From positions 5,580 through 69,579 of the forward strand of contig JBGSUJ010000049.1 in NCBI GenBank assembly GCA_041753435.1: 64,000 bases of DNA. The letters are read 5' to 3'. Below are positions 18,521 through 44,177 of this stretch, piece by piece; positions within the stretch are counted from its first letter, which is position 1; every line of letters starts with the position of its first letter. The position numbers were made by a program, and so were the translations under genes. The notes beneath the pieces are model-generated. The model had not been told where the DNA came from. It was given only the letters and a program-made list of their open reading frames with translations, and ran no database searches. The DNA is from Pirellulales bacterium. Its GTDB lineage: Bacteria; Planctomycetota; Planctomycetia; Pirellulales; Lacipirellulaceae.

Positions 18521-19699
18521 TCAACGCCTCTCCGCTTCACCCGCTCCCTCCGCCCACCCCTGTTCTCTTTCCTCATAAAACTGGGCATAGCGGTCTGCGG
18601 CAATGGCCTGCCGTGCGTCGGCCAACAGACGCTGGTAATAGGTCAGATTGTGGATCGAGAGCAAAATGGGCCCCAGCATCTCGTTCGCTTGAAACAAATG
18701 GCGGAGATAGCCGCGGCTGTGGCGACAGGCAGGGCAAGGGCAGTGGGCTTCGAGCGGTTCGCGGTCGTGCGCGTGTTGCAAATTCCTAAGCCGGACCGGA
18801 CCTCGATCGGTGAACGCCAATGCGTTGCGGCCATTACGTGTCGGCATGACACAGTCGAACAGATCGACGCCGATCCGAATCGCTTCGAGTAAATCAATCG
18901 GCCGGCCAACGCCCATCAAATAGCGCGGCCTGTCGGGTGGCAAGTGAGGCACGGTTGCGGCGAGTGTCTCGTACATTTCCTCAGGAGTCTCGCCCACACT
19001 CAGTCCGCCAATGGCGTAACCGGCAAAATCCATCGCCACAAGCTTCTCTGCCGACTCCGCCCGCAATTCCGCATCGAGCCCTCCCTGGATGATGGCAAAA
19101 ACCACCTGGTCGGTACGCGTCGCCGCCGCGCGGCACCGCGCGGCCCAACGGATGCTCCGTCGCATCGCCTCGGCGATCACTTCCCGCTCGTTCGGCAGTG
19201 CCACCACATGATCGAGTTGCATCGCCACATCGCTGCCGAGTGCCTCCTGTACGGCGATCGATCGTTCGGGCGTGAGCTCAATCCGCGCGCCGTCGATGTG
19301 CGAGCGAAACACCGCCCCCTGCTCGTCGATGACTGCCCGATCGGCAAGGCTGAAGATTTGAAAACCACCGCTATCGGTGAGGATCGGCCCGCTCCAACCC
19401 ATCAGCGAGTGCAGTCCGCCAAGGGCCGTGACGGTTTCCGGTCCGGGACGCAGCAGCAGATGATACGTGTTCGCGAGGATCATCTGCGCGCCCGTCTCGC
19501 GCAGGCGGCCGGCGTCCACACCCTTCACTGTGGCTTGCGTGCCGACCGACATGAAGGCCGGCATTTCAACCGTGCCATGCGGCGTCGTCAAACGCCCCAA
19601 CCGCGCATGGGAGCCGGCATCTTCGTGCAGAAGGTCGAAGCCGAACGTCATACGATCCAAGAGGGCGGACGGGGAATGGCTGCCTTCCATCTTCCCCAT
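18521..19699 (-). CDS. tgt: queuine tRNA-ribosyltransferase (tRNA-guanine transglycosylase)
   Basis: LTDSGGFQ catalytic motif and Zn site [16 protein letters not shown]. Start set at ATG 19699, preceded by GGAGG. Confidence 0.95.
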
Positions 19700-19719
19700 T
19701 CCACCTCCCCCCTTCGTTT

Positions 19720-21045
19720 TCAGTCGCCCCGCAATTTGAGGGCTTGAATCGTCAGCTTCTCGCGGACTTCGTTGAGGCTGGTGACACCAAAATTTTTGCA
19801 TTCCAGCAAATCGTCGCCAGTTCGGCGGACCAATTCGCCAATGGTGGAGATGCCCAGCCGGACCATGCACTTGCGCGCCCGCACCGAGAGGTTGAGTTCG
19901 GAAATCGGTCGATCGAGCATGGCCCGCTCGTTGGGCGAGAGGGTTTCTGGGTCGTATTGGGGCTCTTCCTCCGGTCGCTCGATGGCATATTGGCCAAGAT
20001 CAAGCCCCTTCGAAGTCAGCATTTCGCGGATTTCGACCAGCGAAGTCTCGCCGAAGTTCTTACTCGCAAGCAGTTCTTGCTCGGTTGTTTGGGTCAGGTC
20101 GCCCAGCGTCATCACCCCCATTTTTTGCAGGCAGTTGCGGCTGCGAACCGAAAGTTCGAAATCGGTGACCGGGATGCTCAGCACCTGGCTCAGCCGATCC
20201 TGGCGGCGGCGGGCCTCCTCGTCGTAGTACATATCGCGCGAAGCATCGGCGTCTTTGAAAAACAGCCGGGCCCGTCCATGGCTCGGGTACACATCCATTA
20301 TTCGCTGATAACATTGGCGCGCTTTGTCGTAGAACTGCATGTCTTCGTAGAGCACGCCCAAATTGAGCAGGGTGCCAATGTGGGTCGGAAATTGGTTGGC
20401 CGCCCGTTCGTAAAGCTCCCGAGCATAGCCGTCGTTGCCGTGACGGTCGTTTTCGAGCGCCAGGCCGAACAGCGCACCGGCATGATTCTCGTCGGAAGCT
20501 ACCGCTCGCTCGAGCAGCGCGACGACTTCGTCCGGATTACCACCCAGAGCCGCGATGGTTGCCGCACGTTGGTACAGATACTCCGACGATTGCTCCACGG
20601 CACCGGAGAGGGCGTTGAGCGTATCGAGCGCGGCCTGCGGTTGGCCAGCGTAACGCTGGGCCTCCGCCTTAGCCAGGATGACCACGTCGCGGGCGTAGCC
20701 GGCTGTCTCAGCCGATTGATAGGCGACCAAGGCGTCGTCGTACTTATCGAGCGCAAGGTACGCCTTGCCCAGATAGAAGTGGGTAAGGGCTCCCCCATCG
20801 CTATGCGCCAGCGTTTCAACTGCTTCGCTGTAGCGGCCCAGCAGGTAATAACAAACACCCAGTCGGGCGTTCATCGCCGGGCTGCGGTTGGACTGACCTT
20901 CCAGCTCCGCGACAGCTTCACGCAGATCGCGGTAACGGCTGTAGTTGTTCGCGATGGCCGCGGTGATTAGCTCAATTTCGCGCGGCCCAAAGGCGGATGT
21001 CGAGACGACGATCTGCTTCAAGTCGATTTCGGCAACAATACTCAT
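19720..21045 (-). CDS. TPR-repeat protein with two C-terminal RNA polymerase alpha-subunit CTD-like domains
   Basis: TPR-like helices ([53 protein letters not shown]). Two alpha-CTD-like modules ([19 protein letters not shown]...[14 protein letters not shown]; [19 protein letters not shown]...[14 protein letters not shown]). Start at ATG 21045 with a GAGGAG SD. Confidence 0.85.
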
Positions 21046-21153
21046 GCGAAGATACTCCTCTAAATTGGGTCGCGGGCTCAGAGTCGAGAGTCGAGTGCCA
21101 CCAGCCAACCTCCGGCACTCGATTCTGGACGCTCGACCCTAGGCTTTTCCAAG

Positions 21154-22771: not shown

Positions 22772-23494
22772 GTGACGTGCATGCCTCGCCGTGCGCGCTC
22801 CATCGTCGGTGGTTACGCCTACCATGTCCTCAATCGGGCCAATGGTCGGTTGCGACTATTCAAGAAACCGGCCGACTTCGCGGCTTTCGAGCGGATCATC
22901 GCCGAAGCGTTCGAGCGCGTGCCGCTGCGAATCCTCGGTTACACGCTGATGGGGAACCATTGGCACTTCGTCGTCTGGCCCCGGCAGCGGCAGCATGCAC
23001 AAGTCTCCGAGTTCTTCCGCTGGCTGACCGTGACCCACTCGCAGCGGTGGCACGCCCATCATGGCACCTCCGGCATGGGCCACGTCTATCAGGGCCGCTT
23101 CAAGTCGTTTCCGATTGCCGAAGATGAGCACCTGCTCTCCGTACTAAGGTACGTCGAGCGCAATCCACTGCGGGCCGGCCTGGTCGAGCGGGCCGAACAG
23201 TGGCGGTGGGGAAGTTTGTATCGCCGGATGTTCGGCACGCCCGAAGAGCGGGCCCTGTTGGCCGAGTCCCCGGTGAGGCTGGGACGCAGGTGGTGCGAGC
23301 ATGTGAATCAGGTGCAGAACGAGGCCGAGGAGCAGGCCATCCGCCGCAGCCTTGCCCGCGGCCAACCCTACGGCGGTGACGCCTGGCTAACAAAAGTCAC
23401 GCGGCAACTGAGTTTGGAGCACACGTTCCGACCGCGAGGGAGACCGAAGAAAGGCGCGGCAACGGATGGGCCACAACAACGCACCCAGAAATGA
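22772..23494 (+). CDS. REP-associated tyrosine transposase (RayT)/IS200-like Y1 HUH transposase family protein
   Basis: HUH motif in LMGNHWHFVVWP. Conserved HVYQGRFKSF and LRYVERNPLRAGLV (catalytic Tyr region). Confidence 0.85.
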   Translation: MTCMPRRARSIVGGYAYHVLNRANGRLRLFKKPADFAAFERIIAEAFERVPLRILGYTLMGNHWHFVVWPRQRQHAQVSEFFRWLTVTHSQRWHAHHGTSGMGHVYQGRFKSFPIAEDEHLLSVLRYVERNPLRAGLVERAEQWRWGSLYRRMFGTPEERALLAESPVRLGRRWCEHVNQVQNEAEEQAIRRSLARGQPYGGDAWLTKVTRQLSLEHTFRPRGRPKKGAATDGPQQRTQK

Positions 23495-38441: not shown

Positions 38442-38789
38442 TTATCGACTATCGAGGGGTGCGGTAATCAGGCTGTCTACTTCGGTCTCAAAGCTAGGAA
38501 TTGCAGCTTTGATTCTACCGCAAGTTATTCCTTGAATCGCGAGACGACGGACTGCTTGTAACTTGGGTAACCTGGCTAGAAAAGCTGGAGTCTCATTCCC
38601 CGTGATTTCTCTCGTGATGGCAGGGTTGGTCGCACACGGCAGGGAAATGCCGCGGGCACTGGGAATCTGGCTTGGGATCGTGCCGATGACTTGCATGAGG
38701 GCGGTAGGCGGAGCGCCGCATAGTGCAGAGAATAGACGCTGGAGCCGCGTGCGACGGCAGTTGCGATCCATAAACAGACAGCTGCGCAT
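38442..38789 (-). CDS. hypothetical protein (115 aa), possibly translationally coupled to the upstream VKOR-DsbA gene
   Basis: The ATG overlaps the TAA stop of the upstream gene (TAATG). Lies in an AT-richer stretch. No family recognised. Confidence 0.3.
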   Translation of the reverse strand: MRSCLFMDRNCRRTRLQRLFSALCGAPPTALMQVIGTIPSQIPSARGISLPCATNPAITREITGNETPAFLARLPKLQAVRRLAIQGITCGRIKAAIPSFETEVDSLITAPLDSR

Positions 38790-40312
38790 TACTCGGGTTT
38801 AACGCCGCACGCTTTTTCCCACGCCTCGAACAATTCCTCGGAGGTCATTTCACCACCACTCAGGACGGTATCGCCGACGATTTGGACAGGCAAGCCAAAA
38901 GAAGACTTACCTCGGTGTTGCGCAGTCAGCGCATTAAAGAGATTGATGTACTTCTGCAACCGCACGTCGAGGTTCGGGTCAGTTGTTTGCTCGCGGAGTT
39001 TCGTACGATTGACGAGTTGAAACGCGCGGCTGACCGCCTGCGCAGCCGTCGGCGTCTTATCGGGATCGGCGAGCAGGAAGTTATGGTAATCAATAAACTT
39101 GTTACGATCTATTGCGGCCACGGCCAAGGCTAGTTTCGAGATTTTGCACGAGCCGCGGTGTGAAGGATCGGTGGCCGGCAGTCGCTTGTTACATTCCAAT
39201 TCTAGCGGCATCGGCATGATCACAATTGCCAGTTGCTCGCCATATCGCTCGCGGGCCTCGCGTAAGTGTTCGTGCATCTTGCGGCAATGAGGGCAGGTGT
39301 AGTCCATCAATTCAACAACGACATGTTCAGCTTCTGGCGAGCCAAGCACGGCTTCGTCGTAAATGTTGAACTTCAGCCGTCCGTTGAGCAGCTTCACTTC
39401 GCGTGTCCGCTGAGAATCTTCCTGGACGGCAGGTGGTTCTTCGCTAGCCGGTTCCTCGTTGGCCGGCTGGTCGGGCTTGATGGCGGCCGGCGCTTCGCTG
39501 GCGTCACTGTCGCCTGAACTGGCGGCAGATTCCTCGGCTGAATCCAGCACCTCTTCGGCGGTGTTGAGTACGCGATTGACGACGTGTGGCTGAGCGCTGG
39601 AAGAAAGCACGTTGGGTTCGTCAAGCGACATGTCAGCCGCGGCTGTCATATCGATCGTTTGCTCAAGATCGGGACTGCTGGCGAGAAATGTTTTCGCCGG
39701 AAATAACAGTTGCGCGGTGATCAGTAACGCGACTAGCGCTCCAGCGACAGACCCAGCCGTAATCAGTGAGGGTCCCACCGCCAATCGTGGTCCAGCAGCG
39801 CGCCGCGGCGCGCCGGGGATGGCAGCCATCGAGGCCAAGGTCCGCGAAGCAGCCAAGGAGCCGCTCGGCTTCCGCAGCGCCGACCGCATCACGAGCCCAA
39901 CAATGATGAGTCCACACAAATGGATCGCCAAGCAGTAATAGCAGAATGAGCCGATCGCAAAAACTTGAACCAGCGTGAACCACAGGCCCGTAAAGGCGGC
40001 AAGCAGTGCGGCCGCGACGAGCGTGGTACCAAGCCAACGGTTCTCGTTGAACATCCGCGTACCGGAGAGCAACCCCAAGATGAATATCGACCCGTAGCAG
40101 ACTAGTCCGCCCACCGCGACGGGCAGGCCGACCACTCGAGACCAGCGACTGATCAGCACTTCATCGCAGCCTCCGGCGGTCATGCCATCGCAACCGGCAA
40201 CGACGCCATGGGTCAGCGAGCTCCAGGTTAAATAAGCAGCATCGAGCGTCGCCACGAGTGCCAGAACGACCACAATCCAGCGGGCGGTCCCACGCAGCCA
40301 TGGCTGTGCCAT
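38789..40312 (-). CDS. vitamin K epoxide reductase (VKOR) domain fused to DsbA-like thioredoxin domain
   Basis: VKOR loop cysteines AGCDGMTAGGCDEVLISRWS and the TM CxxC FCYYCLAIHL. Acidic Ser/Ala/Glu linker. C-terminal DYTCPHCRKMHEHL. Start uncertain: ATG 40312, ATG 40354 or TTG 40426. Confidence 0.8.
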   Translation of the reverse strand: MAQPWLRGTARWIVVVLALVATLDAAYLTWSSLTHGVVAGCDGMTAGGCDEVLISRWSRVVGLPVAVGGLVCYGSIFILGLLSGTRMFNENRWLGTTLVAAALLAAFTGLWFTLVQVFAIGSFCYYCLAIHLCGLIIVGLVMRSALRKPSGSLAASRTLASMAAIPGAPRRAAGPRLAVGPSLITAGSVAGALVALLITAQLLFPAKTFLASSPDLEQTIDMTAAADMSLDEPNVLSSSAQPHVVNRVLNTAEEVLDSAEESAASSGDSDASEAPAAIKPDQPANEEPASEEPPAVQEDSQRTREVKLLNGRLKFNIYDEAVLGSPEAEHVVVELMDYTCPHCRKMHEHLREARERYGEQLAIVIMPMPLELECNKRLPATDPSHRGSCKISKLALAVAAIDRNKFIDYHNFLLADPDKTPTAAQAVSRAFQLVNRTKLREQTTDPNLDVRLQKYINLFNALTAQHRGKSSFGLPVQIVGDTVLSGGEMTSEELFEAWEKACGVKPE

Positions 40313-40755
40313 CACGTTTTGTCTAGCGACAGCTGAATTGACCAAAGGAATCATTTGGGGACAACCGGTCGTTAGGTGTGAACCACAGCGATCTTGCCAG
40401 CATTCAGTGAGAAATCGCAGTGGCAATCGAGACCATCCCGCAACGGACCCGTCGCATTACCACAACGATTTTTCGACTATTTCAGTTTACGGCCTGACGA
40501 GGATTCGAGCGAGGGCCTGAGACAGCGTCGCTAGCAGAATTGGCCCGAATAACCCCGCTGATCGAAAAAGTCTGCCTTGTCCTCTGCACCTAGTCTCCTC
40601 TACTATCCGATACTTTGTATCAACCGTTGCGAATGGGCCATGTCGCATTCCCGCGGCAAGCACAGACTGCGACAGCAGCTTAGTCAGCCTCCATACCCTT
40701 CCCCCTCGTTTCGCAGATTCCACGCGAAAAAATTACTGACAAGGAAGTCACCAAC

Positions 40756-41892
40756 ATGAACATGAGTCCAAAAGTGCGGCCGCTCTGGCAGCGTGTGCCG
40801 CTGATGATCGGTACGGCCATGCTCTGGGCCTACAAGGCGTTGCATTTGCCCCGCTTCATTCTGCCACGCGATTTCCGTAGTGTAGTTACGAATTGGGAAC
40901 ACGAAATGTTCTGGGTGCTGATCAAATCAGGCTTCACCCGGGCGTATATCGATCAGCCAAGCTATTTCAAAATGCCGACTTCCTTCGAACCAAAGTGCAA
41001 AGTCGCACCGCAGTTTCAATTGAGCGAACAGGAAATCCACACCTTCTACGAACGCGGCTTTCTCGGCCCGTTCGACGCCTTCAGTCATGAAGAGATGATG
41101 GACTTCAAGAAGGAAGTTCTCGCGCTCGAAAAAACCAAATCGCAGACTTACGGCTTTGTCACGCCCCGCGATCGGCATTTCGAGTCGCCGCGGTTGTGGA
41201 ACTATATGAAGAACCCCGCCATCACCGAGCGCTGTGCCCAAATCCTGGGTCCTGATTTGCTTACCTGGCGGTCGCAGTACTTCTACAAAGGCCCGAAGGC
41301 GCCGGCCATCCAGTGGCACCAGGCCAGCACCTTCATGGTCGAAGATTACCAAGATCCGGGCATCTACCCGCCCGATCGCAGCGAGGTGTTTCAAATAACG
41401 GTGTGGGTAGCAATCGACGACTCAACGCCGGAAAAAGGTTGCATGCGGTTTGCCTGTGGCACTCACGACCGCATCCGTACCATCAAATTCGGCGGTGAAG
41501 AAGGCTTTTACGAAGCGGCCTACACGCTCGACTTCAACGAAGCCGATCAGCCCTGTGTCGAAGTGCCAGTCAAGGCTGGCCAGTTCATTATGTTCATCGA
41601 GCGTTGCATTCACGGCTCCGGCCCAAACACGACCGACCAGCATCGACTGGCCTTCAACATTCGTGTCATTCCAACGCATGTGCCCGCCTATACCAACAAG
41701 CGTTACTACCGCAGCGTGTACAACGGCGGGAAGTACAAGCTCGATAAATGGGGTGTTGCCCTGCTCCGCGGCGAAGATCGTCACCGGGTAAGCCGAGCGA
41801 TTCCGCCGGCGGATCTGGAGTCGGGTGTCTTCACACGCGTGATTCCGCCCGCCGAGCCGCTGCCGAAACCGGCGTTCCGAAAAGCTGCTTAA
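40756..41892 (+). CDS. SyrB2-like non-heme Fe(II)/2-oxoglutarate enzyme (PhyH family) with His-x-Ala metal motif, candidate halogenase
   Basis: FYERGFLGPFDAFSHEEM, ILGPDLLTWRSQYF, QWHQASTF (His188-Gln-Ala190, codons 41317-41325), ITVWVAIDDSTPEKGCMRFACGTHD, CIHGSGPNTTDQHRLAFNIR (His286). SD AAGGAAG lies 8 nt before ATG 40756. Confidence 0.8.
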   Translation: MNMSPKVRPLWQRVPLMIGTAMLWAYKALHLPRFILPRDFRSVVTNWEHEMFWVLIKSGFTRAYIDQPSYFKMPTSFEPKCKVAPQFQLSEQEIHTFYERGFLGPFDAFSHEEMMDFKKEVLALEKTKSQTYGFVTPRDRHFESPRLWNYMKNPAITERCAQILGPDLLTWRSQYFYKGPKAPAIQWHQASTFMVEDYQDPGIYPPDRSEVFQITVWVAIDDSTPEKGCMRFACGTHDRIRTIKFGGEEGFYEAAYTLDFNEADQPCVEVPVKAGQFIMFIERCIHGSGPNTTDQHRLAFNIRVIPTHVPAYTNKRYYRSVYNGGKYKLDKWGVALLRGEDRHRVSRAIPPADLESGVFTRVIPPAEPLPKPAFRKAA

Positions 41893-41981
41893 GGCAAAAT
41901 CAAGCGATCTGCGCCGAGAGTCGAGGGCCGAAGTGAACCGGCTCTCGACTCGTTGTGTTGCTCTCGATTCTCGACTGTTTC

Positions 41982-42833
41982 ATGCGTGATCTTGCTGGAA
42001 AGTGTGCGTTGGTTACGGGTGCCGCCTCAGGCATCGGCCGGGCGATTGCCCTGGAACTGGCGCACGAAAATGTCGATCTGTTTCTCGTCGATATTAACGA
42101 AGTCGGACTTGCAGCGGTTGCCAAGGAGGTGAGCAGAGCTGGTGTCGAAGTAATCACTCGCAGATGCGATGTCTGTCAACCGCACGAAGTGACGGCTTGC
42201 GTACAGGCGATTCTGCATCGTTGGCAAGGGGTCGACATCCTCGTCAATAACGCCGGCATCGCCTATTATGGCCGCACTGAGGATATGTCGATTGAACATT
42301 GGGATCGATTGATGCAGATCAATCTCTCGTCGCATGTGCAGTTCACCCGCGAGCTGTTGCCGTCCCTGCTGGCCCGCCGCGAAGCCCATGTCCTCAACGT
42401 GTGCAGCATGTTCGGACTGGTCGCAATGCCCAAGTTGGTGGCCTACTGCACCAGCAAATACGCGCTCGTCGGATTCAGCGAAGCGCTACGGGCCGAATAC
42501 GGACGGGAAGGGTTGGGTGTGACGGCACTTTGCCCTGGCTTTGTGGCCACCAATTTATTTGCTTCCGCGCCGGTGGCTGCAAACAGTAAAGGACCTAAAA
42601 TCCCTCCCCGCATCTTTTGTACTACGCCTGAGAAGATCGCCCGCCAGGCCCTCCGAGCGATCCGCCTCAATCGCAGGGTCGTCGTGGTCGAGCCACTGGC
42701 AAAGTTGCTCACAACGGTCAAGCGATTCGCACCCAGCGTGATCGATTTCTGCCTGCACCTGGGCCGCCGCAGTCGCATCGTCAAGAAGATGGCACGACTC
42801 GAAAAAAAACAGCGCGAACTGCGGGCCGCTTAG
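41982..42833 (+). CDS. short-chain dehydrogenase/reductase (SDR)
   Basis: Cofactor motif ALVTGAASGIGRAIA, NNAG motif LVNNAGI, catalytic YCTSKYAL. Confidence 0.9.
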   Translation: MRDLAGKCALVTGAASGIGRAIALELAHENVDLFLVDINEVGLAAVAKEVSRAGVEVITRRCDVCQPHEVTACVQAILHRWQGVDILVNNAGIAYYGRTEDMSIEHWDRLMQINLSSHVQFTRELLPSLLARREAHVLNVCSMFGLVAMPKLVAYCTSKYALVGFSEALRAEYGREGLGVTALCPGFVATNLFASAPVAANSKGPKIPPRIFCTTPEKIARQALRAIRLNRRVVVVEPLAKLLTTVKRFAPSVIDFCLHLGRRSRIVKKMARLEKKQRELRAA

Positions 42834-42898: not shown

Positions 42899-43618
42899 CT
42901 AGCCACGTCGCTTCGCATGGTGTCGCCGCTGCACTGCTTGATTCGGCCTCCGGGACTGGCCACCGCCCGACTGACGGTATCCATGCTGGATTGAGAACCA
43001 CTCGGCGTAGCGTTCCCGCTCCACATAGCTGGAATTCTTCTCGTCGACCAAGTGGCCGAGCTCATGGATTAGAATGTTGTTGAGGTAGAAATCCTCAGCC
43101 GCTGGCTGGCTCCAGGTCAGCGTCCATACACCTGGCCCCGGTTCACCCCACACGCCGCCATACATTTTGGCTTCGTTGATCAGAGCAGGCCGGGGCGGCT
43201 GGTAAAAGTGCTCGACCAGCGAGTCCTCCAGCGGGTAAAGGTATATCGCGTTGCCCCACTGCATCCCATAACAGGGGAAACTTTGCTTCTTCCGCGTCAT
43301 GCAGCTCAACTGTACAACTTCCAACTGGTCCAGGAACTCCGGCCGCACCAACCGAAGCCGGTCGCGGATTTGAGCTTCGGTGACAAGATGCTTGTAGCCC
43401 TCACCTGGCTCCTGAATGATGACCCGGTAGCCCACACGGTCGGTCGGCTCGTGCCAATCTTCTGGTGGTGCGAAGGGGGCGCAGTCATTCGGACGCGTGT
43501 TAATCGTGCGGCGGGCCTGCTTGGGGTGCTTGCGCGAATGCCCACCGTTTACCGCTGTATTGCGGCGACGGGCTTGGCGAGTTGGCGACTTGTCGGAATA
43601 ATCGCGGCGGATGTACAT
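42899..43618 (-). CDS. putative HExxH metallopeptidase-like protein with basic N- and C-terminal tails
   Basis: Start at ATG 43618 (MYIRRDYSDK...). NNILIHELGHLVDE motif near the C-terminus. Arg/Lys/His-rich termini (ARRRNTAVNGGHSRKHPKQARR; RRPNQAVQRRHHAKRRG). Confidence 0.6.
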   Translation of the reverse strand: MYIRRDYSDKSPTRQARRRNTAVNGGHSRKHPKQARRTINTRPNDCAPFAPPEDWHEPTDRVGYRVIIQEPGEGYKHLVTEAQIRDRLRLVRPEFLDQLEVVQLSCMTRKKQSFPCYGMQWGNAIYLYPLEDSLVEHFYQPPRPALINEAKMYGGVWGEPGPGVWTLTWSQPAAEDFYLNNILIHELGHLVDEKNSSYVERERYAEWFSIQHGYRQSGGGQSRRPNQAVQRRHHAKRRG

Positions 43619-43919
43619 GACGAGACTCGCGCAAAAAACGCTCGTAGCACTACGGGCTGGGAAATACACTTGTTGACCGTTCCGTGACAAGTGGCCGACT
43701 CACGCAGTCGGCGGTTCCGGTGGTCTACCACGTCCGAATGGCGTTCTAGGGAGGGCAGGAAGCCCGCTGGGGCCTCCTATCTATCCTAGGCAGCGGTTTT
43801 GCTGGGGTTCAAGAAAATGCCTAACTCGTTAATTAATAAGCACTTAAAGATGTTGCTTTTCCGCGACATCGGCTCCCTGACGGGAATCCCAAGAGCTTGG
43901 TTGTAGCGCGGCCAACGAC

Positions 43920-44177
43920 ATGAATATGGATTCTCAATCAGCCAGCAATGCGTTGCCTCGCGTCGTCCTCTACACGCGTGATGGATGCCATCTTTGCGAA
44001 GTGGTACACAAAATGCTCTTACAACATGGTGTGGAGCCCCAATGCATCGACATCGATGCCGACCTTGAACTCAAAAACTGCTTCCACGATTGCGTGCCAG
44101 TCGTCGAAATCGACGGCAAGATTCGATTTCGCGGGCGAGTGGAACCTCTACTTTTGCAGCGATTTTTGCGCCGATAA
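43920..44177 (+). CDS. glutaredoxin-like protein (DUF836-type)
   Basis: VVLYTRDGCHLCEVV (CxxC) and VPVVEIDGKIRFRGRVEPLLLQRFL. Confidence 0.8.
   Translation: MNMDSQSASNALPRVVLYTRDGCHLCEVVHKMLLQHGVEPQCIDIDADLELKNCFHDCVPVVEIDGKIRFRGRVEPLLLQRFLRR

Follow-up and report, generated by a model that had tools for sequence, protein, structure and literature searches.

The 64,000-nucleotide (nt) stretch of DNA analysed in this study, hereafter the window, comes from a Pirellulales bacterium of the Lacipirellulaceae (assembly GCA_041753435.1, contig JBGSUJ010000049.1, positions 5,580-69,579) and encodes, side by side, a halogenase-like iron(II)/2-oxoglutarate (Fe(II)/2OG) enzyme and a classical short-chain dehydrogenase/reductase (SDR). 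The pairing of a candidate radical halogenase with an SDR is well supported, and we propose with moderate confidence that the two form a conserved Lacipirellulaceae module in which a radical halogenase would act on a fatty-acyl-type substrate. What is new here, as far as the sequences tell, is an enzyme of the SyrB2/HctB lineage that combines an added N-terminal module, an apparently obligatory SDR partner and family-wide inheritance with the lack of a local carrier gene.

Results

A SyrB2-type active site with alanine in place of the carboxylate ligand

The halogenase-like gene occupies positions 40756-41892 of the forward (+) strand (1137 nt, ATG start, 378 amino acids (aa)). A Shine-Dalgarno-like AAGGAAG, read from the sequence at 40741-40747 (+), lies 8 nt 5' of the ATG. 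A first-pass annotation of this DNA had reported the open reading frame (ORF), its good Shine-Dalgarno sequence and an SDR ORF downstream, and these are all present as claimed; its overall observation is confirmed. The product has the PhyH fold and belongs to the lineage of SyrB2, CytC3 and HctB. Residues 97-298 match PhyH (PF05721, E = 2.3e-26; 93.8 bits against a cutoff of 22), the sole Pfam domain of the protein. The NCBIfam model for a "chlorinating enzyme", TIGR01762, is matched over 284 of its 288 positions at 152.8 bits, a score below the curated cutoff of 226.3.

The closest sequences in the PDB are SyrB2 (1e-31) and CytC3 (1e-24), and a profile built from 58 family members raises these matches to 2.4e-42 and 7.7e-38, respectively. 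The AlphaFold2 model is confident (predicted local distance difference test (pLDDT) score 89.5, predicted template modelling (TM) score 0.89), and its top Foldseek matches are again SyrB2 and CytC3, with E values of 3e-24 to 1e-18 and TM scores of 0.72-0.74 on the target. Foldseek also matches PhyH and EctD, which have the same double-stranded beta-helix fold. The description of the enzyme as SyrB2-like therefore stands by both sequence and structure. Free-standing halogenases of the WelO5, BesD and AdaV types are absent from the 15 PDB sequence matches (E <=1) and from the top 50 Foldseek matches.

Alignment to SyrB2 (2fct) by HMMER superimposes WHQA on WHQA and CIHGS on LMHAS. His188-Gln189-Ala190 (41317-41325, +), which comprises the proximal iron ligand and the alanine that replaces the facial-triad carboxylate, falls on H116-Q-A118 of SyrB2 and on HQA of CytC3. 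The distal iron ligand, His286 (41611-41613, +), falls on SyrB2 His235, and the 2OG-binding arginines that bound the segment from Arg297 to Arg303 (RLAFNIR; 41644-41664, +) fall on Arg248 and Arg254. The hydroxylase ThoJ (6zyk) has WHQD in the columns of WHQA, and hydroxylase-type relatives carry HQD or HQE in the columns of His188 to Ala190. The missing carboxylate is thus real and lies at the canonical position. Each motif in the first-pass annotation was found where it had been read: WHQA at 41314-41325, supplying His188 and Ala190; the distal CIHGSGP from 41605, with His286; FNIR from 41653; and a GFxGPFDAxSxEEM block held in common with SyrB2 towards the N terminus (RGFLGPFDAFSHEEM against NGFIGPFDAYSPEEM in the HMMER alignment, with GFLGPFDAF starting at 41056). 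Its expectation that Ala190 would fall on the missing-carboxylate position, Ala118 of SyrB2, was likewise correct, as was its view that the remainder of the core is intact. The absence of this ligand also has a bearing on annotation, for HxG/A is the criterion by which a 2026 survey assigns enzymes to the Fe/2OG halogenase class (PMC13519999).

Around this core, Thr215, Trp217 and Phe193 are the equivalents of SyrB2 T143, W145 and F121. The predicted structure upholds the fold; in the alignment, the counterparts of the SyrB2 halide-pocket residues F121 and T143 are kept, and that of Ser231 is Glu282. Glu282-Arg283 (41599-41604, +; MAFFT mapping) forms an invariant second-sphere pair, with Glu282 at position i-4 from the distal histidine and aligned by MAFFT with Ser231, a residue that we take to line the chloride pocket of SyrB2.

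We considered whether Glu282 might be a migrated carboxylate ligand, which would make the enzyme a hydroxylase, and rejected this as a specific compensation. Glu occurs at the same position with HxD in 24 representatives, with HxE in 13, with HxA in 23 and with HxG in 7, and so is not specific to HxA enzymes; its coexistence with an intact HxD/E in 37 hydroxylase-type representatives implies that it is not a replacement ligand. The fatty-acyl halogenase HctB also has it. In a quantum mechanics/molecular mechanics study that used a homology model of HctB, Glu223 was placed beside the halide, the iron ligands were His111 and His227, and Glu223 was described as peculiar to HctB among halogenases (PMC6218459). 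The spacing of E223 and H227 equals that of E282 and H286, with Glu four residues before the distal His, and an HctB-like protein (P0207, composed of PhyH, ACBP and carrier domains) reads FTESVMH. Glu282 would accordingly be compatible with halogenation and would add a further resemblance to HctB.

The HxA site is invariant in the aligned orthologues

A scan of one genome per species found at least 114 genomes that encode a relative. A search of a large protein database with the halogenase-like protein returned 274 homologues, and the best 120 of these, from Pirellulales, are 62-92% identical and nearly full length; the named genera among them are Pirellulimonas, Aeoliella, Botrimarina, Pseudobythopirellula and Bythopirellula. 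Many homologues are named "non-heme Fe2+, alpha-ketoglutarate-dependent halogenase" by JGI/IMG and "phytanoyl-CoA dioxygenase family protein" by NCBI. The clade is thus not unannotated, as the JGI halogenase label already exists. No paper on this halogenase-like family was found in the literature on Planctomycetes and halogenases, and the literature on free-standing lipid halogenases yielded nothing relevant.

In an alignment of 58 orthologues (63-88% identity), His188, Ala190, His286, Arg297, Arg303, Glu282 and Arg283 are invariant in all 58. When 1.84 billion cluster representatives were searched exhaustively, 2315 matches were obtained at E <=0.001, 60 of them below 1e-30. At 36-54% identity, the nearest representatives carry HxA with few exceptions (HxG or HxS), and the more distant ones are a mix of HxD, HxE, HxG and HxA; the 2OG arginines are kept in nearly all of 150 representatives. 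The HxA site, judged from this pattern, is not a chance feature, and Ala190 appears to be held invariant by strong purifying selection.

A neighbour-joining tree, calculated with no bootstrap, groups the genera coherently and places the copies from Planctomycetales, which have no adjacent SDR gene, as one group nested within the Lacipirellulaceae radiation. This topology fits, as weak evidence, vertical inheritance in the Lacipirellulaceae together with one transfer of the halogenase-like gene alone. Such a transfer would suggest, equally weakly, that the enzyme can be useful without dedicated neighbours.

A dedicated SDR partner

The SDR gene (41982-42833, +) encodes 283 aa from the ATG at 41982. 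The longest ORF opens at a GTG at 41955, and the ATG is the probable start because a distant orthologue begins MRE... at the equivalent position; from this start, the 89 bp that the first-pass annotation gave as the distance between the genes is correct. The protein matches Pfam adh_short (3.1e-54) and has the motifs TGAASGIG (at 42015), NNAG (at 42246) and YCTSK (at 42444). Beta-2 ends in Asp (LFLVD) and TGAASGIG has no basic residue, which by the usual SDR classification rules suggests to us that the cofactor is NAD(H). The catalytic core resembles many ketoreductases, and only the lipid-droplet enzymes 17beta-HSD11 and 17beta-HSD13 align through the C-terminal region.

Gene neighbourhoods were compared in 80 genomic loci, using ORFs of at least 55 aa within 10 kb. 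An SDR orthologue (47-78% identity) lies directly downstream on the same strand in 72 of the 80 loci, within about 260 bp in 71 of the 72, and is present in every one of the 72 Pirellulales loci that have enough downstream sequence. The remaining eight comprise four contigs that end at the gene and four loci from Planctomycetales (Thalassoglobus, Planctomicrobium). When the ORFs were clustered de novo, only the halogenase-like gene and the SDR gene, with their shadow ORFs, recurred in more than half of the 80 loci. In the more distant lineage of P0121 (54% identity), the gene immediately upstream, on the opposite strand, encodes an SDR with 55% identity across the full length. The pairing has outlasted a rearrangement here, which argues for a functional link rather than mere operon inheritance. 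The co-occurrence that the first-pass annotation had proposed to test across the Planctomycetota therefore holds for Pirellulales, even through a change of orientation, and fails in the Planctomycetales loci.

The spacer between the two genes contains a GC-rich stem-loop with a 13-bp stem and an 8-nt loop (41918-41951, +), found by pattern scan and similar to a terminator or attenuator. The minimum free energy of the window's spacer is -34.1 kcal/mol (z -2.9). Strong hairpins of differing sequence occur in most orthologous spacers (L001-L045; median z -2.96, with 58% below -2), several of them followed by T-runs. It looks like a conserved element of the pair that attenuates or partly terminates transcription or affects mRNA stability.

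Terminal regions of the halogenase-like protein

Residues 1-83 (40756-41004, +) are an N-terminal extension that is absent from SyrB2 and CytC3, with a tip of the form MNMxPKxRPLWQR and three predicted helices (residues 10-28, 38-46 and 49-58; pLDDT 92-97 over residues 10-60 of the AlphaFold2 model). Residues 2-5 of SyrB2 align with residues 83-84 of the query, which sets the length of the extension at about 83 aa, and orthologues are conserved from Met1 onward, which shows that it is real. The extension that had been estimated at about 90 aa thus exists at slightly shorter length, and the hydrophobic segment reported within it is also present. Residues from about 36 onward are found as well in P0126, a relative fused to a fatty acyl-AMP ligase (FAAL) and an acyl carrier protein (ACP), so this portion of the extension belongs to the catalytic module of the clade.

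The hydrophobic segment, residues 14-25 (40795-40830, +), is a candidate peripheral (monotopic) membrane anchor. It is the least conserved stretch of the protein (mean entropy 1.94) and yet is uniformly hydrophobic (mean Kyte-Doolittle (KD) value 2.09), flanked by near-invariant R8-P-L-W-Q-R13 and Y26-K27. A transmembrane helix was rejected, as the hydrophobic stretch spans about 12-13 residues with a KD19 of 1.03 and is ordered in the model (pLDDT >90). Hydrophobicity combined with variability fits a lipid-facing peripheral anchor. The earlier suggestion that the enzyme is membrane-associated consequently finds weak support, in the form of the anchor pattern and not of a membrane-spanning segment.

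At the opposite end of the protein, the otherwise variable C-terminal tail closes with a conserved Ala-Ala (41887-41892). Across 16 aligned sequences Ala378 never varies, and at least 90% of sequences have Ala377, an ending reminiscent of C-terminal degradation signals.

Relatives outside the clade and clues to the substrate

Several more distant relatives stand in contexts that are informative about chemistry. P0126 (45% identity, HxA, with the Glu-Arg pair) aligns from query residue 36 and joins, in 1074 aa, an AMP-binding domain of the FAAL/DIP2-like type, a phosphopantetheine carrier domain and the halogenase domain. At its locus (L081:10001-13225), the end of a P450 gene overlaps the start of P0126, and about 2.6 kb downstream there is another gene of the PhyH family. 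To our knowledge, an architecture of AMP-binding, carrier and HxA halogenase domains has not been described before. P0123 (45% identity), which has the full N-terminal extension and aligns from residue 4, heads a cluster of genes for a GT4 glycosyltransferase, an SDR, an 820-aa AMP-binding and PP-binding (FAAL-ACP) protein, a carbamoyltransferase and a FabA/ApeI-like dehydratase, and a polyprenyl synthase is encoded nearby. P0124 (39% identity) adjoins a polyketide synthase (PKS)-like protein with acyltransferase and dehydratase (AT-DH) domains and a glycosyltransferase. Small ORFs beside P0124 (94 aa) and P0127 (78 aa) were considered as carrier proteins and dismissed, having neither Pfam nor phmmer support.

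Fusion to, or clustering with, FAAL-ACP or PKS-like modules in these relatives points towards thioester-tethered fatty-acyl substrates, and the wider HxA clade is, on this sequence evidence, tied to fatty-acyl and carrier-protein chemistry. The first-pass annotation had envisaged action on a free small molecule or lipid. For this we found no positive evidence; the relatives favour a thioester-tethered fatty-acyl substrate, with a carrier that may be encoded elsewhere. A further relative, P0131 (40% identity, HxA, L090:1874-2958), is followed, on a single short contig, by ORFs of the sulfotransferase family, a combination that recalls chlorosulfolipid-type chemistry.

Gene neighbourhood

The first-pass annotation had stated that the window holds no ORF for any non-ribosomal peptide synthetase (NRPS), PKS, carrier protein or adenylation enzyme, and this was borne out. 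Pfam scans of all large ORFs in the window revealed no such gene, and phmmer queries with E. coli AcpP, two carrier domains and two AMP-binding proteins had no match among window ORFs of at least 50 aa or among the ORFs of the 80-locus set. The genes of the window are instead housekeeping and planctomycete-typical ones, among them SecDF, YajC, Tgt, CarA, a VKOR-DsbA fusion, HlyIII, an erythromycin-esterase-like protein and DUF1559.

The VKOR-DsbA gene (38789-40426, -), in which a VKOR domain is joined to a DsbA/thioredoxin domain through a long, low-complexity acidic linker rich in Pro and Ala, divergently adjoins the halogenase-like gene in 32 loci, all from closer relatives. In two Planctomicrobium metagenome-assembled genomes (MAGs), a UbiE/COQ5-type methyltransferase gene (Pfam about 2e-63; L067:5113-5922 and L078:3545-4366) takes the place of the SDR gene directly downstream, and in Thalassoglobus the neighbours are unrelated (a GFO/IDH/MocA oxidoreductase and a Mur ligase). 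A link to quinone or isoprenoid metabolism through VKOR-DsbA upstream and UbiE downstream was examined and judged to be ordinary synteny, given the 32 loci of the one and the two MAGs of the other.

Downstream of the pair, a 263-aa protein with no Pfam match and a HELGH (HExxH) motif (42899-43690, -) forms a divergent gene pair with a glutaredoxin-like protein (DUF836; 43920-44177, +); the former is found near the halogenase-SDR pair in 38 loci and the latter in 26, at variable distance. A radical S-adenosylmethionine (SAM) protein with DUF3641, which resembles the arsenosugar enzyme ArsS, and a SAM methyltransferase occur 1-4 kb downstream of the pair in 12-13 loci that represent a subset of the Lacipirellulaceae (L028:12053-13063, L027:3578-4603). 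Because their presence and distance vary, these genes (the HExxH and glutaredoxin-like proteins, the ArsS-like radical SAM protein and its methyltransferase), together with a VWA protein, a PLD-type cardiolipin synthase, an EEP phosphatase and KdsA, were not counted as parts of the system.

Elsewhere in the window, a 462-aa ORF (19720-21108, -) has the unusual architecture of tetratricopeptide repeats and two RNA-polymerase alpha C-terminal domains (PF03118, 7e-43). By longest-ORF calls, about 150 nt at its 3' end coincide with the start of the Tgt ORF (18521-19870). An IS200-like Y1 transposase (PF01797, 7e-10) is encoded at 22772-23494 (+), and a Y1_Tnp gene is also found near the P0121 locus (L092:29-730).

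Discussion

A proposed halogenation module

The conserved ligand set can be arranged into a reaction scheme like that of a radical halogenase. Iron would be held by His188 and His286, and 2OG would bind the iron in bidentate fashion while its distal carboxylate is held by Arg297 and Arg303. Since residue 190 is Ala rather than Asp or Glu, one coordination site would be open for a halide. Activation of O2 would then generate a Cl-Fe(IV)=O species, which would abstract an aliphatic hydrogen and transfer chlorine (or bromine) back onto the carbon radical. A fatty-acyl-type chain would be the most likely substrate, either as a thioester or as a lipid at the membrane surface, where the short hydrophobic N-terminal anchor may hold the enzyme; the thioester handle could be a carrier protein encoded elsewhere, a housekeeping ACP or coenzyme A (CoA). 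The SDR is proposed to act on the same molecule, through oxidation or reduction of a neighbouring hydroxyl or keto group, and both its direction and the order of the two steps are put forward here as conjecture.

Planctomycetes are a source of chlorinated fatty-acid derivatives whose biosynthetic genes are unknown: Rhodopirellula yields a chlorinated decenoic acid, and Alienimonas chondri yields alichondrichlorin, a C26 acid with 2-Cl and 3-OH groups (PMC11848864). A halogenase acting with a keto- or hydroxy-directed SDR could build a chlorohydrin of the alichondrichlorin type, but this is only an analogy. A more direct link was dropped, since no Alienimonas protein stands among the best 120 matches listed for the Thalassoglobus orthologue that served as the query.

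Several observations weigh against the proposal of a fatty-acyl halogenase module and temper our confidence in it. The match to TIGR01762 falls short of that model's curated cutoff, and Glu282 occupies the position of the SyrB2 chloride-pocket residue Ser231, which we keep as a caveat. There is no carrier protein, FAAL, NRPS or PKS gene in the window or within 10 kb in the 80 loci, so that the idea of a thioester draws on relatives of only 39-45% identity; three others of the out-clade relatives, P0127, P0130 and P0133, lie in uninformative contexts. The SDR of the P0123 cluster was rejected as an orthologue of the window SDR, to which it is 24% identical. The Planctomycetales copies have no adjacent SDR, the strong spacer hairpins mean that the two genes may not be strictly co-transcribed, and the lack of an Alienimonas protein among the best 120 listed matches is a further point of this kind.

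Alternative explanations

The absence of nearby carrier genes bears on two other accounts of the locus. The enzyme could be an ordinary carrier-dependent tailoring halogenase of the SyrB2 type, with its NRPS, PKS, FAAL or carrier partners elsewhere in a split cluster and the SDR as another tailoring enzyme. That its best matches are all carrier-dependent halogenases and that close relatives are fused to or clustered with FAAL-ACP would agree with this. We nevertheless find it unlikely, because the gene is inherited in at least 114 species-level genomes in a genus-coherent manner and at 61-92% identity, unlike sporadic cluster genes, and is more conserved than its neighbours (47-78% for the SDR and 31-55% for VKOR-DsbA); the 10-kb surroundings of all 80 loci lack carrier and adenylation genes, and the halogenase alone was apparently retained after transfer into Thalassoglobus and Planctomicrobium. 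A free-standing halogenase would need no carrier at all and would modify a non-tethered membrane lipid or lipophilic small molecule, such as a long-chain hydroxy fatty acid, a polyprenyl- or quinone-type compound or a hopanoid, with the SDR acting on the same lipid. Besides the missing carrier genes, the short lipid-facing anchor, the likeness of the SDR C-terminal region to 17beta-HSD11 and 17beta-HSD13, the persistence of the halogenase alone in Planctomycetales, the UbiE/COQ5 gene in the two Planctomicrobium loci and the polyprenyl synthase near P0123 can all be read in its favour. Set against these are the lack of detectable similarity to known free-standing halogenase families, the relatives that point to thioester-tethered chemistry, the restriction of UbiE adjacency to two related MAGs and the low KD19 of the anchor, and we regard this account as quite improbable.

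Among characterised HxA/G enzymes with this fold, none is known to us to be a dedicated hydroxylase, which counts against a further alternative, that the protein is a 2-His Fe/2OG oxygenase (a hydroxylase, desaturase or similar) that does not halogenate. Its open site would be filled by Glu282, water or a substrate ligand, and an NAD-type SDR would oxidise the new alcohol to a ketone, converting C-H to C=O in lipid or isoprenoid metabolism. Such an enzyme would explain why TIGR01762 is matched below cutoff and why an invariant Glu stands at the chloride-pocket position; it is common for a hydroxylase to be followed by a dehydrogenase, the NAD+-type features of the SDR suggest, by the classification rules, an oxidative role, and HxA/G enzymes can also hydroxylate (PMC13519999). 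The Glu, however, coexists with intact HxD/E in the 37 hydroxylase-type representatives and stands at the same relative position in the validated halogenase HctB, while Ala190 is invariant and the clade at 36-54% identity is almost uniformly HxA, with HxD/E kept farther out. An oxygenase of this kind is, in our judgement, distinctly unlikely, and a radical halogenase that acts on a fatty-acyl-type substrate in partnership with the SDR remains our preferred reading.

Significance

Fe/2OG halogenases are sought-after catalysts of C-H functionalisation. All carrier-dependent members sit in NRPS or PKS clusters, and HctB is the only Fe/2OG halogenase known to act on fatty-acid substrates, according to the 2026 survey (PMC13519999). 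A large and strongly conserved HxA clade that lies outside biosynthetic clusters, is paired with an SDR and has FAAL-ACP-fused enzymes among its relatives would widen the known contexts of radical halogenation, offer new lipid-directed biocatalysts and provide a genetic entry point to the halogenated lipids of planctomycetes, whose chemistry is almost unknown. More tentatively, and with considerable doubt, the making of a halogenated lipid, or cryptic halogenation during the remodelling of lipids, may be a vertically inherited and near-universal trait of the Lacipirellulaceae rather than a sporadic secondary metabolism, with a membrane-anchored enzyme, no dedicated carrier, a dedicated NAD-dependent SDR and a substrate that may be a free lipid, an acyl-CoA or a housekeeping acyl-ACP. 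If true, this radical halogenase system would be the first of a "housekeeping-like" kind and a candidate for making chlorohydrin-type long-chain fatty acids like the one isolated from a planctomycete.

Comparison with known systems

SyrB2, the L-Thr-S-SyrB1 4-chlorinase of syringomycin biosynthesis (PDB 2FCT/2FCU), and CytC3 (PDB 3GJA/3GJB) have the same WHQA motif, distal His, 2OG arginines, T143/W145/F121 equivalents and N-terminal block as the Pirellulales protein. The latter is only 27-30% identical to them, differs in its 83-aa N-terminal helical extension and has Glu282-Arg283 where they have Ser-Thr or Ser-Asn. Its gene also stands apart in having no adjacent adenylation-thiolation (A-T) didomain or NRPS genes and in being inherited family-wide with an SDR partner. 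HctB, the fatty-acyl-ACP halogenase of hectochlorin biosynthesis, likewise has a non-carboxylate residue at the triad position; Val113 lies next to its halide site, presumably at that position, where the HctB-like P0207 (about 36% identical to the halogenase-like protein) has Tyr and the Pirellulales clade has Ala. HctB consists of halogenase, ACBP and ACP domains and comes from a cyanobacterial NRPS/PKS cluster, whereas the Pirellulales protein has no fused ACBP or ACP domain and no such cluster.

P0126 and P0123, relatives from metagenomes or MAGs, resemble the planctomycete family in their HxA, their Glu-Arg pair and an N-terminal extension that they have in part or in full. In contrast to that family, which has no such modules nearby, they carry adenylation and carrier modules of their own and lie among P450, glycosyltransferase, carbamoyltransferase and FabA-like genes. 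Phytanoyl-CoA 2-hydroxylase (PhyH), the founder of PF05721, has the Pfam family and fold in common with the halogenase-like protein, but it retains a full HxD triad, hydroxylates its substrate and is of very low identity (E 3e-4). The substrate of PhyH is an acyl-CoA thioester, which sets a precedent for a thioester substrate that requires no carrier protein.

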